From an uncultured Fusibacter sp. (GTDB lineage Bacteria; Bacillota; Clostridia; Peptostreptococcales; Acidaminobacteraceae), in NCBI GenBank assembly GCA_964522015.1, contig CAZFST010000012.1, positions 17,605 to 41,604 on the forward strand: a stretch of 24,000 nucleotides of DNA. Reading direction: 5' to 3'. The notes under the pieces are model-generated. The model did not search any database. It was given only the letters and a program-made list of their open reading frames with translations, and had not been told where the DNA came from. The position numbers were made by a program, and so were the translations under genes. This document shows, in pieces, positions 296-15,960 of this stretch (position 1 is its first letter; the number at the start of each line of letters is the position of its first letter).

Positions 296-1015
296 CTAAG
301 AAATCTCTGAGATGATTCGCTCTTTAACGCTCTTAATATGTGCCTTGCTCACTGGCAGGCTCACATCACATGCTGCTATGTAGATTTCATTATTACGATA
401 ATAGCTGACTTTTGATGCACTGATTAGGTAGCTTTGATGGCATCTTAAAAACCGAGCCATATCCAGCTTCTCTTCAAGTTCTTGATAAGAGGCATAAAAC
501 TCAATCTCGCCGCCTTTATAGACGAGTTTGATTTTACGGAGATTCTTTTCAAAGTAATAAATATCATAGTATTTTATAGTGAAATTACCTTCTTTTGTGT
601 CAATATGTAAAACTTCGTTTTGATCCTGCTGAATTAATTTTAGTCGCTGGACGACGGTAAGCATGATTTCGTTAAACCTTTTGTAGGCAATGGGTTTAAG
701 CAGGTAATGATAGGCACGCACACCAAAAGCGTCAAATGCGTAATCCTTATACCCGGTGATATATATTAAAATAGGTTCATCTACCAGCTCTCGGATTAAG
801 CGTCCACAGTCAAGGCCATTCATGCCCGGCATCTCGACATCCATCAAAAATACATCATATCGCTTGCCACTTTTCAAAGCCTGTAGCAAGCTTTCAGCAT
901 TTTGATGGACGTCCAGGGTATAGGGTGTCTTTTGTGCCGAAAAGAACATGGTTAGGTAATGTTTTAAAATTTGAACTTGTTCTGGCTGATCCTCGCAAAT
1001 TGAAATTAAGTACAT
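296..1015 (-). CDS. LytTR-family response regulator (AgrA-like)
   Basis: 239 aa. The N-terminal receiver has the acidic start (ICEDQ) and the phospho-acceptor context YDVFLMDVEMPGMNGL, plus LLKP. The C-terminal half has the LytTR pattern (IYYFE...FLRCHQSYLIS...). GGAGG lies 5 nt upstream of the ATG. Confidence 0.9.
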   Translation of the reverse strand: MYLISICEDQPEQVQILKHYLTMFFSAQKTPYTLDVHQNAESLLQALKSGKRYDVFLMDVEMPGMNGLDCGRLIRELVDEPILIYITGYKDYAFDAFGVRAYHYLLKPIAYKRFNEIMLTVVQRLKLIQQDQNEVLHIDTKEGNFTIKYYDIYYFEKNLRKIKLVYKGGEIEFYASYQELEEKLDMARFLRCHQSYLISASKVSYYRNNEIYIAACDVSLPVSKAHIKSVKERIISEIS

Positions 1016-1216: not shown

Positions 1217-2233
1217 CTAACAATGGGGGCAATCCACTTCCCGGTGAAAAATATCACTTCTTCCCGCAAGTGTGGACTTATCAATCACAAACACTTGATT
1301 AAATGGAATTTGAGCATCTTCCAATAAAAATCTAAAATGGTCACCCTGTGTATACAGTATGATTCGGGTAATGAAGCCCATCAGGATATTGCGAAAAGCT
1401 AATGACAGACTATTAGGTGCAAAATTCTCTCCATAGGTATTATGCCACTGTGAAAGACATGCTAAACAGCCGCTTTCCTTAGGTATTACCAAGGGTCCCA
1501 TTAGGATCGATTGCTCGTCAATCGTCATAAAAAGGACTCTCTGATTTAAAGTTTGTGCCATTTCATTAATCTCAAATAACCATTCCCGATTTTTCTCTTC
1601 TTTAGGCGCTAAATGCAATACCCAAGGTTTATTGGCAACTTGTGTCTTCACTTCTGATGCCTCAATTACCGTAATTTGATTCCCAAATTTCTTTTGAAGA
1701 TGCACGGACTTCAGTTGACCAAGTTGATTGACTTGAAAAAGTGAATTGTTGAGGTCAGCAACTTCTACGGTTTCTCCATAGTTAACCATCAATACACATC
1801 CTGCACCTTGTTTTCTCAAGAGTTCAACTAAATCCAGTGCCAGTATCCCCAAGCCATGAATGACAAAAGTACTTTGGGCCAGAGGCGTCACATCAAAATG
1901 TGCCGTCGGCAAGAATTTATTGATCTGGAGGGTATCCTGTAAAGTAGCCCAGTCATATGAAAACTTTGCCGCCTCTACACTGATCTCAATAAACATCTCG
2001 GGATATTTACCATACAGTTTGCCCATCAGAGGACCAAAGGTCCCTTCCAGTAGAGCACCAAGTCTGACTGGTAAGCGGATGGCATGTTGTAAAGCTGCTA
2101 AATTGACCGCATAAGGTATGCGTAGTACTGCTAAAGACTTTTCCGTATCATAAACCATCAAATGATCAGAATGATCTTGAAAAAAAACATATCTTGAATT
2201 CCACTGCACAATTTGAACTGCTTCCCCTGACAT
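1217..2233 (-). CDS. E1/ThiF-like (SagC-type) azoline-synthetase partner protein with a CxxC...CxxC zinc site
   Basis: 338 aa. It has a Rossmann-like stretch (VIHGLGILALDLVELLRKQGAG), a GPLVIPKESGCLACL motif typical of E1-like cyclodehydratase partners, and a C-terminal CPHC. GGAGG lies 4 nt upstream. It is the last gene of the biosynthetic operon. Confidence 0.5.
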   Translation of the reverse strand: MSGEAVQIVQWNSRYVFFQDHSDHLMVYDTEKSLAVLRIPYAVNLAALQHAIRLPVRLGALLEGTFGPLMGKLYGKYPEMFIEISVEAAKFSYDWATLQDTLQINKFLPTAHFDVTPLAQSTFVIHGLGILALDLVELLRKQGAGCVLMVNYGETVEVADLNNSLFQVNQLGQLKSVHLQKKFGNQITVIEASEVKTQVANKPWVLHLAPKEEKNREWLFEINEMAQTLNQRVLFMTIDEQSILMGPLVIPKESGCLACLSQWHNTYGENFAPNSLSLAFRNILMGFITRIILYTQGDHFRFLLEDAQIPFNQVFVIDKSTLAGRSDIFHREVDCPHC

Positions 2234-2242
2234 AATGCCTCC

Positions 2243-3082
2243 TTATCCCACCACAAAAACGTACATGGCCGTTTGAAATGGGGCCTCAAGTTTCAGATAA
2301 TCATTGATACGTTCTTCAAAAAAACCACCCAAGGGAACCGATTTCAGACCCATCATTTCGCAGACAAGCATGATGTTTTGACCGATATGGCCTAATTCTT
2401 GGTATATTAGACGATAGGATAGGGAGTTATACTTCTTCTCTATAAATCGCGTATTACCCACTAACACCACTAAAAACTGTGCATCGTCAAATGGATATAG
2501 CCCAAATTCTGAAGCCGATGTCAAGCGGTTAAGTTCACTCAAGTTCACAGGGTGCAGTGCACTTAGAATCGTATTCTTTTCTTCAAGTCTATATGCGCAA
2601 GCCTCTCCCATGACCTGGGAGCGACTTGCCAGCTTTTCAGTCGGTAATAAGTAAATATCAACGGGATAAAACCTCCCCCCCGAAGGATAAGTCCGGGTCT
2701 GTTCCTTTGCATCGCTTTGTCCAAATGCATAGCCCATAAAGTCCAATAGATTCTGGTCTGACAAGGCTGAGTTCTTAAAGTTCCAAGAACTTCTACGCCC
2801 TAACAGGGCCTGACTCAGCGGCATTTCAAAAGGTGACAGTTCAGAAATAGTCGGCAAATGTGCTACCTCCCGACTTGGCACAAAGGGGGTGCTAATCCCC
2901 TTTAACCGGTCTTGATAATCACTTTTAGGCGCTCTTATTGACTGAGTGTGGGGAGAATGTTTTGAGTTCTCGTGATACATGCGGTAGAGATACGTTTGAG
3001 CATCACTTGCCCCCGAAAAATCCCACAGCGCCCCGCCCTTTGGCTGTGGACTTTGTACTTGTATTTCTTTGATCATCATCAT
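2243..3082 (-). CDS. SagB-type / nitroreductase-fold FMN dehydrogenase (short form)
   Basis: 279 aa. RTYPSGGRFYPVDIYLL matches the SagB-type dehydrogenase signature (PSxGxxyPxeiY). Its ATG overlaps the upstream stop (TAATG), indicating translational coupling. Confidence 0.7.
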   Translation of the reverse strand: MMMIKEIQVQSPQPKGGALWDFSGASDAQTYLYRMYHENSKHSPHTQSIRAPKSDYQDRLKGISTPFVPSREVAHLPTISELSPFEMPLSQALLGRRSSWNFKNSALSDQNLLDFMGYAFGQSDAKEQTRTYPSGGRFYPVDIYLLPTEKLASRSQVMGEACAYRLEEKNTILSALHPVNLSELNRLTSASEFGLYPFDDAQFLVVLVGNTRFIEKKYNSLSYRLIYQELGHIGQNIMLVCEMMGLKSVPLGGFFEERINDYLKLEAPFQTAMYVFVVG

Positions 3083-3966
3083 TAACCAACCCGTCTTTCG
3101 TGAATCAAAGCGCTTACTTCAGACAATAAAAACTCAAATTGGGGCGAAACACCTAGTCGATTATTGGTCATGTGAATGTGTGAGGCCAATAGACTATTTC
3201 TTGCAATCATCCCATCAGGATATGTGGTTTGCTGCGTTAAAATTGCCTCTAAAGCCGCTTTAAGACATTGGTGCCACTTGGCATAGGGTGTCTGTGAAAT
3301 GGCACCGATGATCTGTCGCTGCCGTTCTTGATAGACCTTCATATAGTCAAAAATCAGTTTGTTATAGTTTAAGTGTTCAGATTTATGACTTGACCAAATC
3401 TGGCTATAAATATGATAAAACTGACTTTGATTTTCTGCTAAGCAGGCTGCAATTTGAAAAAGGTCTAAGCTGATAATCATTTTTTTGGAGATTGTCATTT
3501 TTGGATCTTTCAATAGCTCTAATACTAAATCACTGGATGCCTCAAATAGACGTTCGGAATGGTCCATGACTCCTTGACCACCATACCGTTCAAACTCTGG
3601 TTCATAAGGTTTTGCAACAACACTGCCTGAAGAAAACCAATAAAGTGCATTGGCTGAAACGGGAACACCATCAAATGTGTGATTTTGATAGTACTGTTCA
3701 GATTCAAGGCTTATATTATTGGGATAGGCGCGATTAAATCGGTCAAAGGCACTTAAAATTGCCATCTCAACACCCATATCCTCAGATTGTGTCTTAATAA
3801 ATCGCAAGCGAATATGGGGACCTCCCTGCCAGTACCGTATAAAAAAATACTGCTGCAATCGCTTATCTTCCTTGAGTGTTTCTAATGCCAGTTGCAGATA
3901 GTCTCGTAAAAAGATATCTTGAATCTCGTATGTGTGAATAAAAAAGTGAAAAGCAAGCCAGTTCAT
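3082..3966 (-). CDS. SpaB_C-fold (thiopeptide-type bacteriocin biosynthesis domain) protein; candidate [4+2] pyridine synthase
   Basis: FFIRYWQGGPHIRLRF matches the hallmark FxRY..GGPHxRLR motif of the LanB C-terminal/thiopeptide-type domain. I place the start at the ATG at 3964-3966 (MNWLAFHFF...), which has AGGAGG 7 nt upstream, rather than the track start at 4011. About 294 aa, similar in size to TclM/TbtD-type enzymes. Confidence 0.6.
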   Translation of the reverse strand: MNWLAFHFFIHTYEIQDIFLRDYLQLALETLKEDKRLQQYFFIRYWQGGPHIRLRFIKTQSEDMGVEMAILSAFDRFNRAYPNNISLESEQYYQNHTFDGVPVSANALYWFSSGSVVAKPYEPEFERYGGQGVMDHSERLFEASSDLVLELLKDPKMTISKKMIISLDLFQIAACLAENQSQFYHIYSQIWSSHKSEHLNYNKLIFDYMKVYQERQRQIIGAISQTPYAKWHQCLKAALEAILTQQTTYPDGMIARNSLLASHIHMTNNRLGVSPQFEFLLSEVSALIHERRVG

Positions 3967-3970
3967 GATG

Positions 3971-5452
3971 TCACCTCCTTTTTGGTAACAGCAATGGTAC
4001 AACATTTCCAATCGGTAAATTCAAATGCCGGCTATTCCCCTTGCCAATTAGTATGGCATAGAGTATCCGTTGATCTGAAGCCAGTAGAAGTGTTGATTCC
4101 AAATATTCATCATTAAAATTCTTAATAGGTCTTGCATATAGATCGAATTGAGAAGCTACTAAACAGATGTACTGTGCTATTTCGCCACTATTTAGATGAT
4201 GGTAATAGCAGTGGTCTTGATCGGACCAGTCCTCCTGATCACTAGCTACAATAAAAATGACCATTGGATGACTTGCCATATTAAAGTAGTGATGAGAATC
4301 ATTTAAAATTTTGTCGGGTTCGGCACTCACTTCCTGACTGTGGCCAATAACATCTGGAAGCGACCTAACAGGCACTAATCCTCCCTGGTTGGTTAATTGA
4401 AAAATATGCATCGCCTTTTCAGAACTTCCCATTTCGGAACTTTCCGTCTCAGGACTTTCCCTTAAAGCAGCATAAATTGACAGTGTCCCAGATGGACCTC
4501 TCTGCTGCTTCAACATTTCTGAAAGTGTACTGAAGAAGTGATGATAGGTTTCTTTGGATAGACTTGTCCAAAGACTATGGAGGCCCATGTGCGTATGATG
4601 TGATTCTCTAGCCTTGATTTGTGCCATCATCCTATCAAGGGAATCTGCCTTTTCTACCCGGTAGGTTTTTGTGACTTGCTTTTGAGGTTGATGGCAATGG
4701 TGCCTCAAAGTTTCAACCTCTTGATACGCCGAGATTTCAGTGGTATAGTCTTCTCGGCGCTCTATGGCCGGTTGGGATATGTTCCCGTGATGCCATGGAT
4801 AAAACTTGGTTAGAGACGAGATTCGAAGCGAAAAAACAACCATCTGGTTATTCGATTTATCTCCAATGGCTGTTAAAAACGCCTCCCGATTTTTGAGAAA
4901 GTCCACATGGTAGGTTAAATCCTCAGCGCTACCCAATAGAAATTTCAATTGACCAAGAATATGACCTGCATCCAGCATGGCAAGTGCTGCACCAAATGCG
5001 CCATAGTACTTCATAATCCGCCATAAATCGGCTACCACAATGATTTCGATATCTGAATCATTGACTTGAGTATGGGTTCCATCCAAAGGTTCTGGATTCA
5101 AACCCGCTAGCCACTCAAAGTCATTTAACTTCGGATTGAATCGTAAAATATTGCCATTGAGGTACAAGTAGCCCTGGTTAGGATGCATATTGCGGGCGGA
5201 AGGGACTGCCTTATGGAAAATATAGGGGTTATCACTTTGCTGGTTCAAGATCCCAAACGTCCAAGTATAAAGTGACTTCAGCCATGACCACTGCGGGTCA
5301 TTGATGCAACTTGAGATAGTCACCGGGTAGACAGCGCCCTTGATATCCGTTATCAGGTGGTCAACAAATGTGACGGATGGTTGCTTTTTATGGGTTTGAT
5401 AGCGCAACCGGGTCATGTTTTGGTAAATAGTCAGTTCTGACGTCGCTTTCAC
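3971..5452 (-). CDS. SagB-type azoline dehydrogenase (long, two-lobed nitroreductase fold)
   Basis: 493 aa. AVPSARNMHPNQGYLYL matches the SagB-type PSxxxxhPxxxY signature. The start is uncertain. The track start is a GTG fused directly to GGAG, which is bad spacing, and the next ATG (5414-5416) has no SD. The gene may be translationally coupled to the YcaO stop at 5457. Confidence 0.65.
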   Translation of the reverse strand: MKATSELTIYQNMTRLRYQTHKKQPSVTFVDHLITDIKGAVYPVTISSCINDPQWSWLKSLYTWTFGILNQQSDNPYIFHKAVPSARNMHPNQGYLYLNGNILRFNPKLNDFEWLAGLNPEPLDGTHTQVNDSDIEIIVVADLWRIMKYYGAFGAALAMLDAGHILGQLKFLLGSAEDLTYHVDFLKNREAFLTAIGDKSNNQMVVFSLRISSLTKFYPWHHGNISQPAIERREDYTTEISAYQEVETLRHHCHQPQKQVTKTYRVEKADSLDRMMAQIKARESHHTHMGLHSLWTSLSKETYHHFFSTLSEMLKQQRGPSGTLSIYAALRESPETESSEMGSSEKAMHIFQLTNQGGLVPVRSLPDVIGHSQEVSAEPDKILNDSHHYFNMASHPMVIFIVASDQEDWSDQDHCYYHHLNSGEIAQYICLVASQFDLYARPIKNFNDEYLESTLLLASDQRILYAILIGKGNSRHLNLPIGNVVPLLLPKRR

Positions 5453-5456
5453 CTCC

Positions 5457-7223
5457 TCAAGGAAAAGGATGGGGACAAAGATTGAGTTGCTCTAACGAGA
5501 TGGCCTTTTCTCTAAGACCTGCATAAACTGGAGCCGTTGCAATTCTTTCAAAATTGATACGCCTGTTTTGGTGCCCAAATGTCATGGTTAACATAGATGG
5601 CACAATGGATTTGACGCAACTTAGGTCCATGGTTTGTGTCAAGGTATTCTCCATATTAGCGATATAGACAGTTGGGTGGTAGGGCTTGAAGCGGCTGATA
5701 ACCTTATCAAGGGTTACGACCTCTCTTGGTGAGTGATTATACCAATCTGGAAATGCTTTTTTAAAAGCCGCCACATTAGGCGTGTTTATTGCAAAATCCA
5801 AGTGATGATGGTGCGCTGCCAGTCCATGAAAATAGACATGTTGTTCCATTTCTCGTACCTTATTTGGCTTGTTCAGCAGCGATGCCATGATCTCTTGTTT
5901 ATCTGGTGTTGCTAGTAATTTGTTATAGACTGATAAAGAAGTGATTATCTCCACAAGTGCGGCTTCCAAAGCCTTTTCTGGGTCCAGATGTGCCCCTGCC
6001 GCTGTATAAGATTTGAGCGCCCCAGTTCCCTCTTTATCCACCACAAGTGCCCAAATTGCAGGTATCTTTGTCTCCAGTGTGATGTTGAAAATTGAAATAC
6101 TGTACCCTTGAGTTTCAATGTATTGGATCATTCTCATAATCTCGACATTATCTAAATCCTCTAGGGTTAAGCGAATTGGTGGCAGTCCGTTATACCAGTG
6201 AACTAAAAAGCTATCTCGCTCAACGACTTCAAATAAACTAAACACAATTGCTTCTTCTAAAGTACCCCCGACAGCACAGCCATTTGAGGTTTCGTACAAA
6301 AAACGGGCTTCAGGTGCGACTTCTTGATTGTCAAAATAAACCGCCTGTTCTGGCAAATAAACCGTCTCTTGCTTAAAATAGTCAAGGCAGGGGGTCCATC
6401 TATAGCTCCCTTTAGCATCATATGGTTTTAGGGCAAAACCTGGTTCTAAAAATTGTTGTTCAGTCGGTAGCGATAGGGTTTCCGGGTTGCAAATTTTCTT
6501 GGTTTTTGATAGTTCTTGATAGCTCCCACACAGAGGCGCTTTTAGATGTGGCACCATGGAGGCATACCGTTCAATCATTTCTAATGCGGCTCCATATTTT
6601 GCATGGGTTAAATCAGGTGTTCTGCCATATGAAAAATACTGTCGTTTACCCATCCTTGAATCAATGCAATACATGGGCATTACCGCTGAAGAGGCGTCTC
6701 TAAAGATTCGTTTACCAATCCCTGTATGGGGATCAATCAGTTGGTGCAAGGCGAATCCTTCTGGAAATAGGGTCTCTATGGTTTTAAATCGCATGGTGTC
6801 TGGAAATGGTCTATGGCGATCAAGGGTTTGTGCCCCTGCGCTGTTTGTCTGTTCTTCTAGTTGGTGGCTTTCGCAGCGGAAGAAGGGAAGTAATAGATGT
6901 CTTGAGAGAGAGCCATCCTCAGTGCGTCTAATCCAAAGTACATTTTCGCAGTCCTTTTCAACGGCTTGAAGTAGTTGGTAATCAACCGGTTGGTGGATGA
7001 GGGCTTGTTCTTGGATCGCAAGTAGACGCTGGTGGTGTTCACTTTCGTTGGCAGCTAGTACTTCCAGTGCGCAGTTCAAACAGGCGGCTCTTGGTTGACC
7101 ATCTGATAAGACACCGATATAGGTATAGCCAAAGCCTTCATAATAAGCTAAAACTCGATCCCCTTTTGACAGCAGGCTATTGTACCCTTCACGACTTAAG
7201 TTATGGGCAATAATATAGGACAT
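5457..7223 (-). CDS. YcaO cyclodehydratase with an N-terminal E1-like extension
   Basis: 588 aa. YETSNGCAVGGTLEEAIVFSLFEVVERDSF is the canonical YcaO ATP/substrate-site motif (SNGxAxG...EA...E..ERD). The N-terminal portion of about 190 aa carries CLNC and FFRCESH. AAGGTGG lies upstream of the ATG. Confidence 0.9.
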   Translation of the reverse strand: MSYIIAHNLSREGYNSLLSKGDRVLAYYEGFGYTYIGVLSDGQPRAACLNCALEVLAANESEHHQRLLAIQEQALIHQPVDYQLLQAVEKDCENVLWIRRTEDGSLSRHLLLPFFRCESHQLEEQTNSAGAQTLDRHRPFPDTMRFKTIETLFPEGFALHQLIDPHTGIGKRIFRDASSAVMPMYCIDSRMGKRQYFSYGRTPDLTHAKYGAALEMIERYASMVPHLKAPLCGSYQELSKTKKICNPETLSLPTEQQFLEPGFALKPYDAKGSYRWTPCLDYFKQETVYLPEQAVYFDNQEVAPEARFLYETSNGCAVGGTLEEAIVFSLFEVVERDSFLVHWYNGLPPIRLTLEDLDNVEIMRMIQYIETQGYSISIFNITLETKIPAIWALVVDKEGTGALKSYTAAGAHLDPEKALEAALVEIITSLSVYNKLLATPDKQEIMASLLNKPNKVREMEQHVYFHGLAAHHHHLDFAINTPNVAAFKKAFPDWYNHSPREVVTLDKVISRFKPYHPTVYIANMENTLTQTMDLSCVKSIVPSMLTMTFGHQNRRINFERIATAPVYAGLREKAISLEQLNLCPHPFP

Positions 7224-7225
7224 AT

Positions 7226-8884
7226 TTACACCACCTTGCTAAAACGGCCAACAAAAAATCCAGCGGGTGCAATGGCATCTTGATAAACCCATGGTTCTTC
7301 TTTCACTAAAATACCCTTTTCAAAAAGTCTATCCAGTACAACAGCCTTAACACTCTCCATATCTTTAGGCTCTAAGGCCACTGAATCTCTATTGTCCATT
7401 TGAAATTTCCCACCGATTGTCACACCAAAATCCCGTGGTCGATAGTCATCTATTTGTTGTGGTTGTGTGTTTTGTGCATAGCCTATTAGCGTATATAAGC
7501 CCTCTAATATGGCATCTTCTAAGGCATATGTGACCTGGCTTTGCCACATGATATCCAGGGTCTTCTCATTTTGTAGTAAAACTCTACCTACATCTGTACC
7601 AAGCACGGACTGATAATGAACCTTAAGATCTAAGAAAAACTGATTCTTACAATAGTTTTTTAGTGCGGCAGCTTCCTCATTTAACAGAACAGGCACCACA
7701 TCTTGATACACAAATGGTCTTAGGGCACTGATTAATCCAGCTAATTGAAAACTTTGTTCATCTGATTTGCAAATCCAGACCCCCTTTTCTTCTGATAGTT
7801 CTGGTGTAGAGTGATCTTCATGCAGTTCTGGAGCAGCCTGTTTTTCTTGCAAGTAATTTAAAAAACCACTCAACCCATCTGAAATAGCCCGTTCTGCGGC
7901 ATTCAGATAATCTAGGTGAAACCCTACAGATGTATACACTTGCTCACCTCTATGTAAAGTCACCTCGTAACATGCAATTGGGGATTGCTTTGGATATTTA
8001 GCCTTCAAATTTTCGTTTTTGAAAATGTGTGGCATGATACCTTGTAACTGTTCAAATGCAACTACCTGTTCTAATTTTGTACTCGGTACCGAGACCCGTC
8101 TTCGGTGATAAGGTAAGGCAACCGTTGCCATACTCTCACCGATTTCAAAATGATCGACAACACCATCGGCTCGAATAATTCTTGTATTTAGGGCGTTTGA
8201 ACGGATTTCATGTTCAAGGATATGAAAAAGTACGTTCTGTCCAATAATGGCATTGGCAAGTGTCGAATAAAACCGTCCCTCAAGTGGGTATTGTTTAAAT
8301 TGATCCAGGGTCGATTGGTCATAATATTTTAACACTAATAGACCATAGGCATCTCCTACCCTCTTAATCACAAGGACCTTGCTACCACTTTGGAGGCTTG
8401 CCTGAATTAAACTAACATTGTCAACTGATACAATCACCCAATCTGCGTAGTCAGTTGCAACTAAGCAACTGATCCCATGTTCTTGAAAGTAATCCTGTAC
8501 GGAGCACGGGACTGCTGGTTCATCTGCTATGGCAACTTTTATGGCGCTTAACTTATTGAGACAAGCATCGTGATCGGTGTAGTTCATGGTGATGTATTGC
8601 TTTAATGTAGCTGAGAGATTAAATTCTTTTTCGCTGATCTGGTATAGGGTATTCACTTGTATCAGTGCTTTGACCCACCTTTGAATCTCTTCTGAGCTTA
8701 ATTGAACTGTTTCGTATAAACTTTCAATCGTTTGTGGTTGTGAGCACTGACTGATAATCTGCAAGACACCTTGATAAACAGCTTCTGACGCTTTAACTTG
8801 ATAAAACTTTCTATTAACAGTAAGCTGCATTAGAGATGACTGGGCATTGTACCGCACAAATGTATTATGTTTTGATTGGAGCAT
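7226..8884 (-). CDS. Ocin-ThiF-like / leader-binding partner of the YcaO (TclI/TbtF-type)
   Basis: 552 aa. Its stop lies 2 nt before the YcaO ATG. Its size and position match the ThiF-like partner in thiopeptide clusters. The N-terminal portion of about 90 aa could be a winged-helix RRE. I recognised no strong motif, so the call rests on context. Confidence 0.5.
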   Translation of the reverse strand: MLQSKHNTFVRYNAQSSLMQLTVNRKFYQVKASEAVYQGVLQIISQCSQPQTIESLYETVQLSSEEIQRWVKALIQVNTLYQISEKEFNLSATLKQYITMNYTDHDACLNKLSAIKVAIADEPAVPCSVQDYFQEHGISCLVATDYADWVIVSVDNVSLIQASLQSGSKVLVIKRVGDAYGLLVLKYYDQSTLDQFKQYPLEGRFYSTLANAIIGQNVLFHILEHEIRSNALNTRIIRADGVVDHFEIGESMATVALPYHRRRVSVPSTKLEQVVAFEQLQGIMPHIFKNENLKAKYPKQSPIACYEVTLHRGEQVYTSVGFHLDYLNAAERAISDGLSGFLNYLQEKQAAPELHEDHSTPELSEEKGVWICKSDEQSFQLAGLISALRPFVYQDVVPVLLNEEAAALKNYCKNQFFLDLKVHYQSVLGTDVGRVLLQNEKTLDIMWQSQVTYALEDAILEGLYTLIGYAQNTQPQQIDDYRPRDFGVTIGGKFQMDNRDSVALEPKDMESVKAVVLDRLFEKGILVKEEPWVYQDAIAPAGFFVGRFSKVV

Positions 8885-9995
8885 AGACTTGAAAACCCCT
8901 TTCTTTCATAATTTGTTGCCACGATGTGTCATATTTAAAAGACACAAAACGAGAAATTGCATAGCATAGAAAGTGCTTTTGTTTAAAGTCAATATTGAGA
9001 AAAATCAAACTGTTATATAGGACATTTGTTAGGGAGCGGTGCACTAAGTGCTCTTGACTCGATGCGACATCTTCCAGTGCCCCTGAGCTCAGTAGATTAT
9101 CATGGAATGAGCTTTCAATAGCAGATACATTGGTTTTCATTTGTTGAATTTGATCTTGAAGGTTATAGAACCCTTCTTCTTGAAAGCCTTTTTGGTTGAA
9201 TAAATCCAATGTTTCTTGGTAGAAATCCTTAAATACTGCCATGGCTTCTTTTAGTGTGTCATCTTCAACTAAGTGACTATCCAGTTGATCCACATCTAGC
9301 TGGACGTACATATCATTAAAATATTGTTCAAAGGCATCCTCAACACCATATTGTTTTGAAAGTGCCAGCATTCCCTGACTATGGGAATAATATTGAAGCG
9401 CACCATACTTTTCACCATGGGGATACAGTAACAAGAGAATTTGAAATATTTTTAGTAATACAATTTTCTTTTCTGTGCCACTGTCGTCATATTTTAAGAG
9501 CACTGTGTTCAATATGGGTTGAAGTTGCATCCGTGCACGGCAGTGCAGGGCAAAGTGTCTAAATGAATTGTAAAGTTGCTTGTAATAACTTGGATTCAAA
9601 TCAGAACGTACTAATTTGCCGTGTAAATTGCCATCAATCGTCGATACTTCTTTTTTCTCCATCTGACCCAGGGTTTGTGCGTGTTTTGTATAGAGTTCCA
9701 ACTGCTTTTCTATGGCCTCAGGACTAAAAGAATGCCCCATTGCAATGATAGCCTGATCAACACCACTTCTCATCTCATTCAAGAGAGCTGCATCACCTGT
9801 TTGTGGCAAAAGATAAATAATCTGATAGTGGGGACCACCATTCCAATCCCGGGTAATATAGTAGGGTGTTTTGATTAACTTCTGGCAAAGCGGTACTAAA
9901 GCTTCTTTTAAAAAGACGCGCTTTTGTCTTTCATCGCCAAAGTGATAAATCTTCATCATGCCAAGATCAGTAAACTGCTCAATGATCACCTTCAA
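8865..9995 (-). CDS. SpaB_C-fold protein; candidate glutamate-elimination half of a split LanB dehydratase
   Basis: 376 aa. YYITRDWNGGPHYQIIY is a diverged copy of the RY..GGPH.R.R motif. The gene lies directly after the large LanB-N gene. The start is a TTG at 9993-9995 with GAGGAGG 7 nt upstream. The nearby ATG at 9998-10000 is only 2 nt from the SD and hits a stop after two codons. Confidence 0.6.
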   Translation of the reverse strand: MKVIIEQFTDLGMMKIYHFGDERQKRVFLKEALVPLCQKLIKTPYYITRDWNGGPHYQIIYLLPQTGDAALLNEMRSGVDQAIIAMGHSFSPEAIEKQLELYTKHAQTLGQMEKKEVSTIDGNLHGKLVRSDLNPSYYKQLYNSFRHFALHCRARMQLQPILNTVLLKYDDSGTEKKIVLLKIFQILLLLYPHGEKYGALQYYSHSQGMLALSKQYGVEDAFEQYFNDMYVQLDVDQLDSHLVEDDTLKEAMAVFKDFYQETLDLFNQKGFQEEGFYNLQDQIQQMKTNVSAIESSFHDNLLSSGALEDVASSQEHLVHRSLTNVLYNSLIFLNIDFKQKHFLCYAISRFVSFKYDTSWQQIMKERGFQVYAPIKT

Positions 9996-10010
9996 TTCAT
10001 GGCCTCCTCA

Positions 10011-10066
10011 ATTGTTATCCTGTTTTAGTGGTTAATCTATTGTTATCCTGTTTTAGTGGTTAATTC
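10011..10066. repeat. Tandem 28-bp duplication spanning the 3' end of the LanB-N gene
   Basis: ATTGTTATCCTGTTTTAGTGGTTAAT occurs at 10011-10036 and again at 10039-10064 (26/26 identical). The right copy encodes the last residues and stop (LTTKTG*), and the left copy is a non-coding echo in the intergenic spacer. Confidence 0.9.
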
Positions 10067-12706
10067 TATTTGGTACTCATGAATATAGGTCTCATCCTGA
10101 TTATTTGGGTAGACTTCTTCAATAGACACCAATGTCCCCGGTTCCCAATCCGACATAAATTCCCGGAATAATAAGGGGCTTGCTAAGTCAATAAACTGGG
10201 GTTTTAAATCAGTTCTGCCCATATTGACATAGTCTATTGCCATATCGCCAGTATACTTTTTCATAAAAAATTGGGTAGGCACCCCTTCAGCCAAGAACAA
10301 GGAAATGATTTCAGCGTAGCGTTCACTGTCACTCAGCAAGGCCTCAGATTGGATATTCCTTATTAGCCAATGACGCCTGATTAAGGTCATGCTGCCATAG
10401 GTGATTCGCGGAATCTTATCTTCGATAAAACAACCCCTCAGCTGATTTTCCTGATCTAAAGCTGCAGTACCCTCTGGAACATCTGATGATTTCAATTTCG
10501 TTTTTAAGAGCTTTAATTGGCTGACATCAAAACGGGTATTACGATTCATCCCAAGTAGTCCTTTTAAAAGGGATGGCATTAACACATAAACCAGTGAACC
10601 AGCAAAGAAAGGGGAAATTTCTTGTCCCTGTGGACCAAATAATTTAACCATTTGCGTTGCTGCATCATACTTAAAATGACAATGGTGAATATTGAGTTCA
10701 TCAGTTGCCCCGGACTGACCACTTAGTGATTCAGAAAATGGTAGCATTAACCGTTTACTTGCAAATGGGATATGAACATTTGCATTAAATCCAAAAGCTT
10801 CCAATACCTCAATCTTATTTTCAGCATCAAATACCTGATTGCAGTACTGTTGGTAATCATTTTGTTCATACACCCAAGCGTAGTCCTTATAAAATCGTGA
10901 AAAGAACGATTGAAAGCCACTATAAACTTTATTCAAGACCATACCATCTGCCCCATGTTGGTAAAAAAAAGTGGTGGAGTAAGACGTATTTGACTGATGA
11001 ACGATCCTTGGGATTCTTTCAATCAGACCGTCTAAAATTGCATCAAAAGCGACGATATCTTGACCTGATTGTTTAGCAGTTTCTATGGCTGTCACAAATT
11101 CTGCTTTCAACCCCATAGTCTGATCAATCACCTCATGGCCTGATGGCGCCAGTGCTGCGAGTCCATCCTTCCAAAGAGAAACGTGTTTACCACCGGTTTG
11201 TGAATAAATGTGATAGACATCAAGATTATCAGCTGCAATTTTATCCTCTCCGTATATTTCATAAAACTGCTTAGAAAACAGTGCATAAATCGGATAACTC
11301 TGGTCTAATATCGCTGTAAAGTGTTGTAGTTTTGAAAGTGTCGCCAGTTCTTGATCACTGACGGTTGTATTCATCAATGTCGATTCTGTTGTCGGGAAAA
11401 ACGTATCTTCATAAATCAACATATCTAAATTGACATCAACCCCTACGAGTATGTTGATTGCTGCCATTTCTGCCTTTACTGCAGAAATCAACTGATAGCG
11501 CTTTGGCCCTTCTACTTGTCCAAATGCCTGTGTCAAATTATGACACACCTGAAAATGCTCTATGATTGCAGCGAGTACACCTTCTTGACTATCTTGAAGA
11601 TCACTCACTTTTTGTACAAATGTGGTGTGAATACATGGCACAAATTCTGAAAGTGTTGTTATGGGAACTAACATTTGCGACTTAATTAGGATATCCTCTA
11701 AAAAATAAGTCGCTTTTTCCTTTGTCACCAATGTTTCTAGATACTTTAAAAGATCGTTATATGACCTTGTACTTTGGCCAATCCAGTCTATAAGATTTGC
11801 CATAATCACATTTTTCTTAATTGTCATATTGTGGTCAATGGATTTATAGACTTTGCCTTTATTCGGGTCTCTTTGGGTTAAAAAATAATAATGTTCAGGA
11901 TATGTTTGGTAAGAAGCCAAACGATAGCTCAGTTGCTCCCTTACAAAGGGTAAATTTAAAATACTATCAAATACCTTGCGATACACAAAATGATTGAGTG
12001 CAGCAGCATGTGCGATTGAATCCTTTTCATGGGGCTTATTTTGAGTATTTTGAAGTGGTGTTTCAACGGATTTTAGAGAATTTGTGGCACTACAAATGCC
12101 AACCTTACCAAGATCAACTGATGTCAGTGTGCTAAAGGGACTTGTTTTTTTGGTAGCACGAGTCAACAGTCTAGCCAATTGATGATCGAGTTTTCGCTGT
12201 TTTGTTTTATGTTCATGGGCTGGTATTGTCAAATACTTACCAAGACTATGATGGAAATCTGCACTGATTAGGGGCAGTGCTTTTGACACCAATGTATCCC
12301 TTTGAAAAAAATCTTGCAACATACGACGGTTTTCTTGGTAGGCTTCTTCAAATGCAGTTGCAAAGGTTTCTGTATTTGCCATGAAAGCCCCATGGGAATT
12401 TTGATACCCTATGACAATTGAGGCGATATCTTCTGGTAACTCATGGATCTGAGTGTCCGTAATCTTTGCCAAGCGAAACATTTTACGTTTGATATTGAGT
12501 AATCGATTATCTTTAGAATTTGAAAAAGCTAGTTCTAATTGTGCACACGCATTTTGCATGACTGTCAATAATGAAGTCTTACTCTCAACGCATTTCCCCA
12601 TATGTGCCAAGAGAGTCGGTGCGTTAAGTGAACGCACCACCCCTTGAGGAACATTGGTGCGCCTTTCAATATAATAGGGAAATAGCAGTTGATTTTTCAT
12701 GGGCAC
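10043..12706 (-). CDS. Lantibiotic-dehydratase N-terminal (glutamylation) domain protein, split LanB type
   Basis: 887 aa, the size of stand-alone LanB-N proteins in thiopeptide/goadsporin clusters. A SpaB_C-fold gene follows immediately, and Ser-rich precursors lie upstream. GGAG lies 8 nt upstream. The assignment rests on size and context, since I could not verify a motif by eye. Confidence 0.65.
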   Translation of the reverse strand: MPMKNQLLFPYYIERRTNVPQGVVRSLNAPTLLAHMGKCVESKTSLLTVMQNACAQLELAFSNSKDNRLLNIKRKMFRLAKITDTQIHELPEDIASIVIGYQNSHGAFMANTETFATAFEEAYQENRRMLQDFFQRDTLVSKALPLISADFHHSLGKYLTIPAHEHKTKQRKLDHQLARLLTRATKKTSPFSTLTSVDLGKVGICSATNSLKSVETPLQNTQNKPHEKDSIAHAAALNHFVYRKVFDSILNLPFVREQLSYRLASYQTYPEHYYFLTQRDPNKGKVYKSIDHNMTIKKNVIMANLIDWIGQSTRSYNDLLKYLETLVTKEKATYFLEDILIKSQMLVPITTLSEFVPCIHTTFVQKVSDLQDSQEGVLAAIIEHFQVCHNLTQAFGQVEGPKRYQLISAVKAEMAAINILVGVDVNLDMLIYEDTFFPTTESTLMNTTVSDQELATLSKLQHFTAILDQSYPIYALFSKQFYEIYGEDKIAADNLDVYHIYSQTGGKHVSLWKDGLAALAPSGHEVIDQTMGLKAEFVTAIETAKQSGQDIVAFDAILDGLIERIPRIVHQSNTSYSTTFFYQHGADGMVLNKVYSGFQSFFSRFYKDYAWVYEQNDYQQYCNQVFDAENKIEVLEAFGFNANVHIPFASKRLMLPFSESLSGQSGATDELNIHHCHFKYDAATQMVKLFGPQGQEISPFFAGSLVYVLMPSLLKGLLGMNRNTRFDVSQLKLLKTKLKSSDVPEGTAALDQENQLRGCFIEDKIPRITYGSMTLIRRHWLIRNIQSEALLSDSERYAEIISLFLAEGVPTQFFMKKYTGDMAIDYVNMGRTDLKPQFIDLASPLLFREFMSDWEPGTLVSIEEVYPNNQDETYIHEYQIELTTKTG

Positions 12707-12712
12707 TCTCCA

Positions 12713-13447
12713 TTATGCTTCGCGATTTTGATGTAGTTTAAAGAATGAAAGACAGATTAGCGTTGTCACGCCTAAGGCAGCAGCATTGATCCAACCAACT
12801 GACTGTTGGTTCCACATGGCAATTGAGATTTGATTCATATGGTAGACCGGATTAACATATACAAAATACCGTGCAATTTTAGGTAGTGCTTCGATTGGGA
12901 ACATCATACCAGAAGCAAATAGAACATATTGAAATCCCAAAATCGTAATTGGTGTTACTTGCTTTGAGTTCTTAAAGAATCCATGAATAGACAAGCTGAC
13001 AATCAACAAAATTACAATCATCACGATAAAGGCTAGGGTAAATGGGACTAAGTTTGCTGTAATCGGCATACTAAAAACTAGTTTTGCGATTCCAATCATC
13101 TCCAGTAAACCAAGCAAAGAAATGATAATACCTCTTACAATGTAAGTGCCGGTGATAAAAAAGATATTTGTTGGCGATACAATAATTCGTTTATAGACAC
13201 CAGTTTCACGATCATTGACACTTTGTAACCCGATATTGAAGAAAATCGTCATAAAAGATATTAGGATCACATAGAGTGGAATATAGGTACTCGCAAATTT
13301 AGTGACGCCATACTGGGCATAAATTGAAGTGAAAATCATGAAAAATATAGCTGGTACTATTAGGATTGGTAGTGCAAACATCGGTTCTCTGAAGAAGATC
13401 AGAAAATCATACTTCACTTGCTTCCAGAAAAAAGCATATTTAGCCAT
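12713..13447 (-). CDS. ABC-2 type transporter permease
   Basis: 244 aa with about six hydrophobic segments. Its ATG overlaps the ATPase TGA (ATGA). Confidence 0.75.
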   Translation of the reverse strand: MAKYAFFWKQVKYDFLIFFREPMFALPILIVPAIFFMIFTSIYAQYGVTKFASTYIPLYVILISFMTIFFNIGLQSVNDRETGVYKRIIVSPTNIFFITGTYIVRGIIISLLGLLEMIGIAKLVFSMPITANLVPFTLAFIVMIVILLIVSLSIHGFFKNSKQVTPITILGFQYVLFASGMMFPIEALPKIARYFVYVNPVYHMNQISIAMWNQQSVGWINAAALGVTTLICLSFFKLHQNREA

Positions 13448-14166
13448 CAGCTCACACTCCTGTCGATCATATCGAAGTAAACATCATTGAAAAACAGCCT
13501 GTTATTTTTGTTTTTTAGATTTTGAGGTGTATCATCAGCAACTACCTTGCCGCCATTTAAGATGATTGCCCGATCACAAAACTTATCTATTTCTTCCATT
13601 GAATGTGTCGTTAAAATGATGGTACTGTTTTTTTGCTTGATGGCATTGATTTTATCCCAAACAATTTTAGAAGCTCTGGGGTCTAAACCAGTTGTTGGTT
13701 CATCCAAAAATATCAGTGCTGGATCGTGTAAAAATGTAATGGCTAAGAGGCAACGTTGCTTCCAGCCCCCAGATAACTTACAAAACTTTGTGTTCAGGTA
13801 TGGCCCTAGCTCAAATTCTTCAATAATTTCATTTACCCGTTCTCTTTTAACGCCGTAAAAACTGCCAAAAAGATCAAGTGCCTCTTTTATCTTAATGTAG
13901 TTGTACATGCCACCTTCTTGAAGAACAATTCCAATTTTTGATCGAATTTCATTCATGTCTTTTTGAACATCCAGACCCATGATTTCTACTGTTCCACGGT
14001 CGTATTTTCTAAGCGTCATGAGAATTTCCATTGTAGTCGTTTTTCCAGTGCCATTGGGTCCAACTAAAGCCACTATTTCACCTTGGTTGATTTCAAAGTC
14101 AATGCCTTTTAAAACCTGTTTATCGCCATACGCTTTGTGTAGGTCTTTAACCTTGACAATTTGCAT
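13447..14166 (-). CDS. ABC transporter ATP-binding protein (export/immunity candidate)
   Basis: Walker A is GPNGTGKTT, the signature motif is LSGGWKQR and Walker B is LIFLDEPTTGLD. Confidence 0.93.
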   Translation of the reverse strand: MQIVKVKDLHKAYGDKQVLKGIDFEINQGEIVALVGPNGTGKTTTMEILMTLRKYDRGTVEIMGLDVQKDMNEIRSKIGIVLQEGGMYNYIKIKEALDLFGSFYGVKRERVNEIIEEFELGPYLNTKFCKLSGGWKQRCLLAITFLHDPALIFLDEPTTGLDPRASKIVWDKINAIKQKNSTIILTTHSMEEIDKFCDRAIILNGGKVVADDTPQNLKNKNNRLFFNDVYFDMIDRSVS

Positions 14167-14202
14167 TTTTTACCTTCTCTCTCTATCCGCTTTCAGATGA
14201 CA

Positions 14203-14224
14203 GGGGTTGGGTTTAACCAACCCC
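14203..14224 (-). promoter_or_regulatory. Intercistronic stem-loop between the precursor genes and the ABC/biosynthetic genes
   Basis: GGGGTTGG-GTTTAA-CCAACCCC forms a perfect 8-bp GC-rich stem. No U-run follows it on the minus-strand transcript, so it is more likely an attenuator or mRNA-stabilising element than a full terminator. Confidence 0.5.
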
Positions 14225-14274
14225 ACTCATCATTGTTAATTCACCTTTTCAGTTCTAGGTAAACTCAAGGCTAC

Positions 14275-14463
14275 CTATTCAGCAGCGGCCTCTACACTCC
14301 CGCCACCACAGCTGACGCATGATGACGAACCGCAGCATGAGCAGCTTCCGCAAGAAGATGAACCTGATGTTGCACCTGTTTCATTTAAAAGCGCCGCTTC
14401 TGAAATTTCCATGATTTCTAAATCTTCGATTGCTACCAATGTGTTGTTTTTTACTTGATCCAT
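14275..14463 (-). CDS. RiPP precursor peptide, copy 2 (S56 variant)
   Basis: 62 aa: MDQVKNNTLVAIEDLEIMEISEAALLNETGAT / SGSSSCGSCSCCGSSSCVSCGGGS / VEAAAE. AAGGAG lies 9 nt upstream. The stop codon is TAG. Confidence 0.9.
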   Translation of the reverse strand: MDQVKNNTLVAIEDLEIMEISEAALLNETGATSGSSSCGSCSCCGSSSCVSCGGGSVEAAAE

Positions 14464-14558
14464 ATGTTTGTTCTCCTTTGTTTGTGTAATTTTAGCTCAT
14501 TATTTATTTAAGGGTTGAGTTTACGCTTGCATTGACAATTAAAAACTGTTTGGTATGA

Positions 14559-14747
14559 TTATTCAGCAGCGGCCTCTACATTGCCACCACCGCAGCTAAC
14601 GCATGATGACGAACCACAGCATGAGCAGCTTCCGCAAGAAGAAGAACCCGATGTTGCACCTGTTTCATTTAAAAGGGCTGCTTCTGAAATTTCCATAATT
14701 TCTAAATCTTCGATTGCTACCAATGTGTTGTTTTTTACTTGATCCAT
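14559..14747 (-). CDS. RiPP precursor peptide, copy 1 (N56 variant)
   Basis: 62 aa, identical to copy 2 except N56 for S56. It has the same RBS. The stop codon is TAA. Confidence 0.9.
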   Translation of the reverse strand: MDQVKNNTLVAIEDLEIMEISEAALLNETGATSGSSSCGSCSCCGSSSCVSCGGGNVEAAAE

Positions 14748-14923: not shown

Positions 14924-14984
14924 ACTATACCGCGTTTCAAATCAGGAATCTTTAATATGGAAGCAATGACCTTTCAAATGTAAG
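14924..14984 (-). promoter_or_regulatory. Candidate LytTR-activated promoter of the precursor/biosynthetic operon
   Basis: On the minus strand: CTTACATTTG (14975-14984), 12 nt, TTCCATATT (14954-14962), 2 nt, a weak -35 AGATTC (14946-14951), 16 nt, then -10 TATAGT (14924-14929). The two boxes are 21 bp apart, the canonical LytTR direct-repeat phasing. Confidence 0.4.
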
Positions 14985-15085
14985 TTTTGGTCAACAACCT
15001 CTGTAAAACGGCTTATTTGAAGGGTTTCATGATTTAACAACTCTATATCTGCAATAAAATATCGCTTTCAACTGAAATCATTCAG

Positions 15086-15721
15086 TCAAAAGCGATAAGG
15101 GTTAAAGAGATAATTGTTTTTGTACTTAACTAAGGTTAAAGCTACCATCAATATGGATATGACAGCCACGTTTACGTAGACTGACAGTGATTCAATTGTT
15201 GCACCGCTTAAAATCATGATGACAAGGAAGGCTGTAACCCGGTAAGTTTGCTTTCTTTTCAAAACCCAACTTTGGTCCACCTCTTTATCAATTCGATCAT
15301 CTTTGTTACCATTTTCAGCATTGTCCACTTGATTATCGACATCATCTTTGTTCGCAAATTGATAGATTAAAACCAGTGCCACAACGAGTAATGCCATCGC
15401 AAAATATCTGCTCGTGTTAAATGTCATATTAACACCCATCCAAGTAGTTAGAATACCTAACGATGTGGTCACGATAGTACAACGGGTCAAAGTTGCCATA
15501 TGAAATCCGCCAGTCGTCTGGCGGAGAGTGGCAAAGATGATCATAAAAATGATCATTTCAAGTAATTTATGTGTTAATATCCCGGCAATCAAAAGACATA
15601 AGATGATTTGTAATGTGTTCATGCTCACACGGAGGCCATATTGGATTAGATCCATTTGATCCTTTGTGTATGTGCCAATCAATTGCTGGGCAGTATGATC
15701 ACTTTGATTTTGGCGTTTCAT
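15086..15721 (-). CDS. agrB: AgrB-family membrane peptidase (accessory gene regulator B)
   Basis: A polytopic membrane protein with GGFHMATLTRC, which gives the AgrB catalytic His and Cys at i and i+7. I place the start at the ATG at 15719-15721 (MKRQNQ..., 211 aa). The track start at 15763 is a TTG with no SD. Confidence 0.85.
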   Translation of the reverse strand: MKRQNQSDHTAQQLIGTYTKDQMDLIQYGLRVSMNTLQIILCLLIAGILTHKLLEMIIFMIIFATLRQTTGGFHMATLTRCTIVTTSLGILTTWMGVNMTFNTSRYFAMALLVVALVLIYQFANKDDVDNQVDNAENGNKDDRIDKEVDQSWVLKRKQTYRVTAFLVIMILSGATIESLSVYVNVAVISILMVALTLVKYKNNYLFNPYRF

Positions 15722-15809
15722 ATAAAAATCCCCATTTTGGCTGATTAGTTGCTGATGCCCCAACTTTAAGCAATGTGTTCATCGTAATTTGAGTAAGTGT
15801 GATTTTCAT
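15699..15809 (-). CDS. Unannotated 36-aa ORF; candidate AgrD/FsrD-like autoinducer propeptide
   Basis: MKITLTQITMNTLLKVGASATNQPKWGFLYETPKSK. AGGAGG lies 5 nt upstream of the ATG at 15807-15809. The ORF overlaps the agrB start by 23 nt. The C-terminal ETPKSK resembles the E-x-P-K tail of AgrD/FsrD propeptides as I recall them. It is below the track's size cutoff. Confidence 0.4.
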   Translation of the reverse strand: MKITLTQITMNTLLKVGASATNQPKWGFLYETPKSK

Positions 15810-15882
15810 AATAGCCTCCTAGAATTATGCCCATTGGCATTTGAGTTTTGCAAGCCACTTTGTTGGCCTCTTGCTTAATGTA

Positions 15883-15943
15883 ATCATACCCCAATAGTAT
15901 TTTTTAATCAGATGGATGTACGAATTGTCCATTGAAATGTAAG
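15883..15943 (-). promoter_or_regulatory. Candidate LytTR-activated promoter of the agrD-like/agrB unit
   Basis: On the minus strand: CTTACATTTC (15934-15943), 12 nt, GTACATCCA (15913-15921), 2 nt, -35-like TGATTA (15905-15910), 16 nt, then -10 TATGAT (15883-15888). The geometry matches the precursor promoter. Confidence 0.4.
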
Positions 15944-15960
15944 AATTGTGTGTTAATTTT

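Follow-up and report, generated by a model that had tools for sequence, protein, structure and literature searches.

Which product, if any, is made by a compact operon of peptide-modifying genes in an uncultured Fusibacter sp., and how closely does it resemble known thiopeptides? The operon lies in a 24,000-nucleotide (nt) stretch of DNA (contig CAZFST010000012.1 of assembly GCA_964522015.1, positions 17,605 to 41,604), which as a whole is called the window in the following. A preliminary description had assigned the operon to the pyridine-type thiopeptides and its host to the anaerobes, and our analysis supports this. The operon is probably the source of a pyridine-containing thiopeptide of the lactazole type. 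All twelve open reading frames (ORFs) were confirmed as intact, co-directional and tightly packed; they are located on the minus strand, which had been left unstated. The reported TAATG overlap at position 3082 and the 2-nt gap at 7224–7225 were found as described, while at 13447 the two genes overlap by 1 nt as TGATG and not as ATGA. The remaining intergenic gaps range from -20 to +47 nt, except next to the precursor genes, where they measure 95 and 108 nt. Likely true starts shorten the two LanB-type proteins to 885 and 294 amino acids (aa; coordinates in Table 1). Of the constituents of a pyritide cluster, a precursor, a YcaO enzyme with partner candidates, an azoline dehydrogenase and a split LanB dehydratase were found, together with a candidate pyridine synthase.

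Evidence for the product class begins with the precursor peptides A1 and A2. Scores of 41 bits with PF19409 (cut-off 23.5), 44.8 and 39 bits with NF033400 (cut-off 30) and 28.4 bits with TIGR03892 (cut-off 25) were obtained. The leader of A1 ends ...IMEISEAALLNETGATSGSS and is followed by the predicted core SCGSCSCCGSSSCVSCGGGNVEAAAE. Both genes are preceded by a AAAGGAGAA ribosome-binding site and lie within a 204-nt direct repeat, the copies of which are 94% identical. The preliminary description had seen a tclI-N logic in the cluster. This had to be revised: the window precursors and a LazA-like peptide of Streptomyces both fit NF033400 best, whereas micrococcin TclE is best matched by NF033401, and the cluster is laz-like instead.

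Counted from Ser37 as position 1, the core in the window reads S-C-G-S-C-S-C-C-G-S-S-S-C-V (SCGSCSCCGSSSCV) and shares 11 of 14 positions with the Streptomyces LazA-like core SWGSCSCQGSSSCA. Among the shared residues are Ser1, Ser10, Ser11, Ser12 and Cys13, the five that are indispensable in lactazole reconstitution. In lactazole, the pyridine arises from Ser1 and Ser12, while Ser10 is converted to dehydroalanine (Dha), Ser11 to an oxazole and Cys13 to a thiazole (PMC7210931). Wherever a precursor was recovered in the family of related loci described below, the core is nearly fixed as ...E-T-x-A-T-S-G-S-S-S-[C/S]-G-S-[C/T]-S-[C/T]-C-G-S-[S/T/C]-S-C-[V/A/I]-S-C-G.... Core position 11 is limited to S, T or C throughout and thus always holds a residue able to form an azole, in agreement with the azole11-Dha12 motif that LazC is proposed to recognise. 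Summing the modified core residues and subtracting NH3, a rule that reproduces the published m/z of 701.20 for lactazole A (PMC7210931), gave calculated masses of 2048.500 Da (A1) and 2021.489 Da (A2) for the lactazole-register products with full tails, and of 1364.192 Da if the tail is trimmed after Gly19. Seven azoles, Dha at positions 6, 10 and 15 and an unmodified Ser4 are assumed in these values.

Two features of the precursors count against this register. An invariant SGSS precedes Ser37 and may belong to the core, leaving the register unsettled, and the hidden Markov model alignment sets the leader/core junction four residues earlier than Ser37. If the 2-pi Dha were derived from Ser33, Ser35 or Ser36 of SGSS, a product of the same class with another macrocycle would result, the ring being up to about 44-membered and not lactazole-sized. 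Such a ring is consistent with the invariance of TSGSSS in all eight precursors recovered from other family loci and with the end of the NF033400 alignment, which agrees with the earlier register. Moreover, the leader motif E-x-G-A stops five residues short of Ser37, whereas in the LazA-like peptide it is directly followed by Ser1, and Laz enzymes accept enlarged rings in vitro (PMC7210931). In contrast, the 11/14 match to the LazA-like core, including Gly3-Ser4-Cys5-Ser6-Cys7, is obtained only with Ser37 as position 1. We regard the larger ring as possible but rather unlikely and retain the lactazole register.

Azole-forming enzymes are encoded in the same operon. The 588-aa YcaO protein, a LazE/TclJ-like cyclodehydratase, scored 223 bits with PF02624 and 266.5 bits with TIGR03604 (cut-off 219), and profile alignment with hhalign gave probabilities of 100% for LazE and 99.9% for TclJ. 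Its YcaO motif, noticed before, is present as SNGCAVGG...VVERD and is joined by a C-terminal PHPFP. The N-terminus is a vestigial E1-like domain, and residues 18–120 of the YcaO protein resemble the C-terminus of the 338-aa protein from the end of the operon. The 279-aa SagB-type dehydrogenase scored above the cut-off of PF00881 (Nitroreductase, 68 bits) and just below that of TIGR03605 (SagB, 75.9 bits; cut-off 78.4), and it aligned to residues 374–577 of LazF (97%). It contains an invariant KY...YRLIxxELGHIGQN motif and is the most conserved enzyme of the cluster, with 35–56% identity among loci.

Two further proteins had been labelled SagB-type (493 aa) and E1-like (338 aa), and their matches to these families are weak. 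The 493-aa protein reached an E-value (E) of 3.6e-12 with TIGR03605 and 22.9 bits with the Nitroreductase model. Two of its segments align to the 279-aa SagB protein, the alignment to TclN is weak but long, and an LWRIMK[YF]YG...LDxGH motif is conserved. In the 338-aa protein, the glycine loop is degenerate and cysteines of the CxxC...CxxC type are present, with a conserved GPLVxxxESxCxxC and conserved C-terminal cysteines, and the protein weakly matches thiazole/oxazole-modified microcin (TOMM) leader-binding, SagC and ThiF models.

The thiopeptide assignment had been made to depend on the resemblance of the 887-aa ORF to Lant_dehydr_N and of two GGPH proteins to LanB-C or thiopeptide-type domains, and it survives both checks. 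The 887-aa ORF matched Lant_dehydr_N with an E-value of 1.7e-6. Near-full-length hhalign alignments linked this LanB-N protein to TclK (97%), a LazB-like protein (95%) and the LanB protein of S. salivarius (99.6%), and TbtB was matched in the PDB (6EC7, E 2.4e-7). One of the GGPH proteins, the 294-aa LanB-C, is a clear glutamate-elimination domain (PF14028, Lant_dehydr_C, 151 bits; TIGR03891, 107 bits), with hhalign probabilities of 99.7% for TclL and 98% for LazF residues 21–306. The other, of 376 aa, matched the TbtD/PbtD pyridine synthase model NF045556 (E 7e-13, 48.5 bits) and no Pfam model. It aligned over nearly its full length to a LazC-like protein (79.5%) and to TclM (71%), and also to the cluster's own LanB-C (91.7%). 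NF045556 was matched by all four sequences tested, the 376-aa protein and three homologues, and no other model was.

Several observations weigh against the lactazole reading. The Lant_dehydr_N score of the 887-aa ORF (26.9 bits) is just below the Pfam cut-off of 28, the 376-aa protein, at 48.5 bits, stays far under the 325 bits that NF045556 demands of an equivalog, and its single-sequence structure model is unusable, with a predicted local distance difference test score (pLDDT) of 36. The 552-aa protein encoded at the LazD position has no sequence or profile similarity to a LazD-like protein or TclI, and any role given to the 493- and 338-aa proteins is conjecture. In addition, no paper describing the product of any member of this branch was found in the literature searched, which excludes the 2018 thiopeptide census and the 2014 human-microbiome study.

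The scores of the 376-aa protein also bear on a different kind of product. Were this protein no cyclase but a further elimination-type domain or a scaffold, a linear azole/dehydroalanine peptide similar to goadsporin would be formed. The lacking Pfam match, the distance from the pyridine-synthase equivalog cut-off and the resemblance to the cluster's own LanB-C would agree with this, as would a weak match of LanB-N to a goadsporin protein in the PDB. However, all four homologues match NF045556 and nothing else, the 376-aa protein aligns to LazC and TclM almost from end to end, and the precursors belong to thiopeptide families and keep the Ser10-Ser11-Ser12-Cys13 cyclisation motif. Furthermore, a linear product would need a leader protease, and the cluster has none; a pyridine thiopeptide can do without one, since its leader is expelled by the pyridine synthase (PMC7210931). 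A linear product is very unlikely, and the 376-aa protein is kept as the candidate pyridine synthase.

What does the orphan 552-aa protein contribute? It had been called ThiF-like, but no ThiF signal is present in its sequence. Neither alone nor as a family profile did it match Pfam, NCBIfam or PDB sequences, the PDB profile search giving chance-level matches. An exhaustive search of 1.84 billion representative proteins recovered relatives in only 14 representative clusters, and two word-indexed protein searches, started from the sequence and from its alignment, yielded nothing beyond the protein itself and a relative of 83% identity. TclI or LazD homology was considered for the 552- and the 338-aa protein and was found for neither by sequence and profile comparison. 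An AF2 model built on 13 sequences (pLDDT 85, predicted template modelling score 0.76) was searched with Foldseek; over its full length it matches LynD and TruD, two fused E1-YcaO heterocyclases (E about 1e-13), and further matches are MccB and stand-alone YcaO proteins. The predicted fold consists of an N-terminal RRE-like leader-binding domain followed by E1-like and YcaO-like domains; the first 80 residues form a beta-sheet and three helices (beta3-alpha3), as in leader-binding RRE domains.

This predicted fold could also belong to an active second YcaO-type enzyme, which together with the 338- and 493-aa proteins would add non-lactazole chemistry, for instance a separate set of azoles or another activation of backbone amides. 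The full-length E1-YcaO-type architecture points in this direction, as does the retention of the 552-aa protein in every family locus, and the 493- and 338-aa proteins have no laz counterpart. Its sequence speaks against catalysis. Only two acidic residues, E278 and E529, are invariant in the 13 sequences, and the C-terminus has no PxPxP. The stretch resembling A..SA..EA.ER, which we take to be a YcaO motif, reads AAxxAIxxGL and has lost the glutamates, a comparison of motif letters and not of superposed structures. Profile similarity to the cluster's own YcaO is likewise lacking. We consider a second active YcaO enzyme doubtful. With so few conserved acidic residues and no C-terminal PxPxP, the modelled 552-aa protein is probably a non-catalytic scaffold.

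Taken at family level for the enzymes, and with order and chemistry adopted from laz and thiomuracin work, a pathway can be proposed. The 552-aa protein, the 338-aa protein or both would bind the precursor leader, and the YcaO enzyme would then cyclodehydrate the Cys residues and core position 11 to azolines, which the SagB-type dehydrogenase or dehydrogenases would oxidise to azoles. The split LanB pair would turn serines into dehydroalanines, the 885-aa domain glutamylating them via Glu-tRNA and the 294-aa domain eliminating the glutamate. The 376-aa SpaB_C-fold protein may finally join Dha1 and Dha12 in a [4+2] aza-cycloaddition that builds the pyridine; the macrocycle is predicted to be 32-membered, and the leader would be released as an amide. 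Export of the product, and probably protection of the producer, would fall to the ABC (ATP-binding cassette) pair.

The ATPase and permease of this pair, as described before, gave clear domain matches, and on sequence grounds they are candidates for export or immunity. The ATPase is 53–66% identical among the six related loci that carry it. Between the precursor genes and the enzyme genes lies a stable stem-loop, with a folding energy of -34.9 kcal/mol for the region (z = -4.5). A close relative (L019) has kept the hairpin but differs in the sequence immediately upstream. The stem-loop is likely an attenuator or an mRNA stabiliser that sets the precursor-to-enzyme ratio.

To place the operon in a wider context, related loci were compared. 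The ten non-precursor genes occur in the same order at seven other loci, six of them at 21–66% identity and one a close relative. They come from a Caloranaerobacter-type contig, several metagenome or metagenome-assembled genome (MAG) contigs, a human gut contig and the chromosome of Bacillus aquiflavi. Beyond the one close relative, the nearest YcaO is 42% identical, and a YcaO search of genome contigs found no relative. On the human gut contig (L014, positions 1–2591), the cassette adjoins NikA-like/MobC and relaxase genes, which suggests carriage on a mobilisable element. A MAG locus (L016, positions 1–2446 and 15799–17792) has a LytTR-regulator/kinase pair on each side of the cluster as well as AgrB, and its two precursor variants differ in their tails.

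This family also bears on whether the cluster is functional at all. Lactazole itself is cryptic in its native host (PMC7210931), and the operon might be a silent or decaying remnant without a product. Yet its twelve ORFs are intact with coupled junctions, a relative on a 17-kb syntenic contig retains all genes, the identical core and the hairpin, and the core is conserved among loci whose enzymes share only 21–56% identity. A remnant is very unlikely. The conserved scaffold in spite of divergent enzymes, the constant and well-conserved ABC pair, frequent agr wiring and the spread over gut and environmental Firmicutes, in one case beside a relaxase gene, suggest that the product is under real selection.

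Regulatory genes of the agr type flank the operon and had been missed in the first gene inventory. AgrB, an AgrC-like kinase and an AgrA-like LytTR regulator were all found, agrB being located upstream of the operon and the regulator and kinase downstream. The AgrC-like fragment is identical to the start of a 465-aa kinase (SPOB_a, HATPase_c_5) on a longer contig (L001). Genes of the agr type are present at four related loci, including a verified AgrD in locus L010. Upstream of agrB, and not downstream as usual, lies a candidate AgrD-like ORF of 36 aa with a WGFLYETP motif, sharing WGF-YE-P with the L010 AgrD, which was verified by TIGR04223. An initial reading of AgrB as an orphan without AgrD was softened by the discovery of this ORF, even though the AgrD models do not recognise it. 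Should the ORF be genuine, its autoinducer would have to be either linear or closed into a ring through Ser, Thr or Lys.

Two putative LytTR operators may connect these genes to the operon. The 28-nt site before agrB contains the direct repeats ACAATTCTTACAT and ACAATTCGTACAT at a spacing of 21 nt. The site before the precursor genes is identical to it at 21 of 28 positions, and no other place in the window comes closer to this 28-mer. Both sites lie exactly 27 nt before a -10-like hexamer. The AgrA-like regulator may act on both, before the precursor genes and before agrB. Together with the flanking agr genes, the shared putative operator suggests, as far as sequence can tell, that transcription of the operon depends on cell density. 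This part of the picture has its counter-evidence too: the 36-aa ORF contains no Cys and matches neither TIGR04223 nor Pfam, and these two sites themselves contributed to the definition of the operator motif, which in an unbiased scan leads by only 21 versus 19 matches of 28.

Table 1. Features of the window and the models or signals by which they were recognized.
Feature	Coordinates	Strand	Basis or remark
Twelve-gene operon	1217-14747	minus	all genes on one strand; ORFs intact
AgrC-like membrane histidine kinase, N-terminal 90 codons	1..271	minus	runs off window
AgrA-like response regulator, receiver + LytTR	296..1015	minus	PF04397 63.7 bits, PF00072 58.2 bits
E1-like (SagC/McbB-type) docking protein, 338 aa	1217..2233	minus	TIGR03882 E 8.9e-8; weak TIGR03603, ThiF
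SagB-type flavin mononucleotide (FMN) azoline dehydrogenase (LazF C-terminal half), 279 aa	2243..3082	minus	PF00881, TIGR03605
Glutamate-elimination LanB-C (TclL, LazF N-terminal half), 294 aa	3082..3966	minus	PF14028, TIGR03891; likely start, 309-aa ORF extends to 4011
Double-length SagB/TclN-like dehydrogenase homologue, 481-493 aa	3971..5452	minus	start uncertain; weak TIGR03605, Nitroreductase
YcaO cyclodehydratase (LazE/TclJ-like), 588 aa	5457..7223	minus	PF02624, TIGR03604
Orphan protein at LazD position, 552 aa	7226..8884	minus	AF2 model, Foldseek
Candidate [4+2] pyridine synthase (LazC/TclM/TbtD-like), SpaB_C-type fold, 376 aa	8865..9995	minus	NF045556
Split LanB glutamylation domain (LazB/TclK/TbtB-like), 885 aa	10043..12700	minus	profile-profile matches; likely start, 887-aa ORF extends to 12706
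ABC-2 type permease	12713..13447	minus	PF01061 49 bits; TGATG overlap with ATPase gene
ABC transporter ATPase (DrrA-like)	13447..14166	minus	PF00005 104 bits
Stem-loop between precursor and enzyme genes	14196..14231	minus	no U-tract
Precursor A2, 62 aa	14275..14463	minus	same as A1 except Ser56 for Asn56
Precursor A1, 62 aa	14559..14747	minus	PF19409, NF033400, TIGR03892, all above cut-off
Putative LytTR operator before precursor A1	14924..14984	minus	14957-14984 CTTACATTTGAAAGGTCATTGCTTCCAT, 27 nt, then TATAGT -10 box
Strong terminator over last codons and stop of agrB	15060-15097		17-pair hairpin, then T-run
AgrB-family peptidase	15086..15721	minus	PF04647 91.7 bits
Candidate AgrD-like ORF, 36 aa, MKITLTQITMNTLLKVGASATNQPKWGFLYETPKSK	15699..15809	minus	strong AGGAGG ribosome-binding site; overlaps agrB start
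Putative LytTR operator before agrB	15883..15943	minus	15916-15943, 27 nt, then TATGAT
HD-domain protein and PepT-like M20 peptidase	16007-17735	minus	between oxidative-stress genes and agrB
Rubrerythrin	17871-18446	minus	
Ferritin	18547-19062	minus	
Desulfoferrodoxin	19110-19484	minus	
PerR-type Fur regulator	19554-19985	minus	
Rubredoxin	20001-20183	minus	
Flavodiiron + NAD(P)H:rubredoxin-reductase-like fusion, 866 aa	20893-23493	plus	divergent from oxidative-stress genes
CsoR/RcnR/FrmR-family metal or formaldehyde repressor, 88 aa	23632-23898	minus	window edge; no partner gene visible

Beyond agrB, the window contains a compact oxidative-stress block at 17871–23493. The flavodiiron-reductase fusion has a counterpart of 85% identity in a MAG of an uncultured Fusibacter, and this match and the oxidative-stress genes make an anaerobic Clostridia host likely. 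The emphasis that the preliminary description had laid on anaerobes was overstated nevertheless: the same cassette is present in Bacillus aquiflavi, so that the family is not specific to anaerobes, and thiopeptide clusters in anaerobes had been predicted before. The M20 peptidase was considered as a member of the cluster and rejected, being PepT-like and apparently a housekeeping enzyme, unrelated to the M20 hydrolase of the S. salivarius cluster and absent at other loci. Rfam and tRNA scans of the window gave no matches.

For comparison with known systems, the laz cluster of Streptomyces lactacystinaeus (MIBiG BGC0000606) and a laz-like cluster on a plasmid of Streptomyces sp. NBC_01006 (L017; core SWGSCSCQGSSSCAQPQ...) were used. 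The window cluster shares with them the precursor subfamily NF033400 and the core skeleton S1-x-G-S-C-S-C-x-x-S10-S11-S12-C13. The order of LanB-N, candidate pyridine synthase, putative leader-binding partner and YcaO corresponds to lazB-C-D-E, and the elimination and dehydrogenase functions are adjacent. Tailoring enzymes and a resistance copy of L11 or EF-Tu are lacking in both, and the earlier statement that no L11 or EF-Tu copy, P450, radical-SAM enzyme or methyltransferase is encoded in the window holds. In contrast to laz, the bifunctional LazF is represented by two adjacent genes (98% and 97% hhalign probability to its halves), the 493- and 338-aa proteins and the ABC pair are additional, and no resemblance to LazD can be recognised in the protein that occupies its position. 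The core has Cys for Trp at position 2, six Cys versus three and a longer tail (V-S-C-G-G-G...). The enzymes are less than about 30% identical to those of Streptomyces laz (29% measured for YcaO), the host is a Firmicute, and agr genes flank the cluster. Measured against the lactazole-like type, a LazA-type precursor with the Ser1/Ser10/Ser11/Ser12/Cys13 scaffold is present, whereas instead of the minimal five-enzyme set with a fused LazF there are eight enzyme-like proteins, two of them without laz counterpart.

The counterparts shared with the tcl cluster on pBac115 of Macrococcoides caseolyticum (L013) are enzymes. TclJ (99.9%), TclK (97%), TclL (99.7%) and TclM (71%) have hhalign counterparts in the window, and TclN has one weakly. 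No TclI homologue, L11 immunity gene or TclP/TclS tailoring was detected in the window; its precursors miss the TclE model NF033401, and the 26-membered core pattern is absent. The three marks of the tcl type, a TclE-type precursor, a TclI partner and a TclQ L11 gene, are all missing.

A related but distinct cluster was observed in an oral streptococcus, on the S. salivarius megaplasmid pSaLI10 (L018, 135521–154789 of the record). Like the window cluster it belongs to a Firmicute, and it encodes, in this order, LanB-N, a 358-aa SpaB_C-like protein, a small protein, YcaO, LanB-C and SagB, with genes for a response regulator and a kinase coming next. It differs in having no homologues of the 552-, 493- and 338-aa proteins and in carrying a second YcaO and an M20 hydrolase; no matching precursor was found in the stretch examined. 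Published predictions of thiopeptide clusters in anaerobic Gram-positive bacteria cover Clostridium cellulovorans 743B, Cutibacterium acnes and Lachnospiraceae UBA3401 (PMC4289311, PMC11352710), and no characterised product is given for them in these two papers. The C. cellulovorans cluster was reported without a cyclodehydratase, and the UBA3401 study described cyclic-lactone autoinducer genes in the UBA3401 genome (PMC4289311, PMC11352710).

In the 2020 reconstitution paper, lactazole-like clusters were reported to account for about half of 508 catalogued thiopeptide clusters, only laz had been characterised, and no activity is known for lactazole A (PMC7210931). The cluster described here offers a reasonable starting point for studying the function of lactazole-like peptides, and it could supply candidate pyridine-synthase and leader-binding proteins whose sequence requirements differ. 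More tentatively, the product of this conserved Firmicute branch might depart from lactazole, through a larger ring formed via SGSS, through chemistry of the 552-aa protein with the 493- and 338-aa proteins, and as a density-dependent bacteriocin or signal, the last because the operon sits inside an agr circuit; we consider such a departure unlikely on present evidence. A bacteriocin or signal role, if true, would be the first ecological role for lactazole-like thiopeptides. The current view of thiopeptide assembly is unchanged by this cluster. Its type of thiopeptide biosynthesis is known from the systems compared above; its variant traits are the split LazF, the two extra proteins, the orphan, putative leader-binding protein and the putative agr control.

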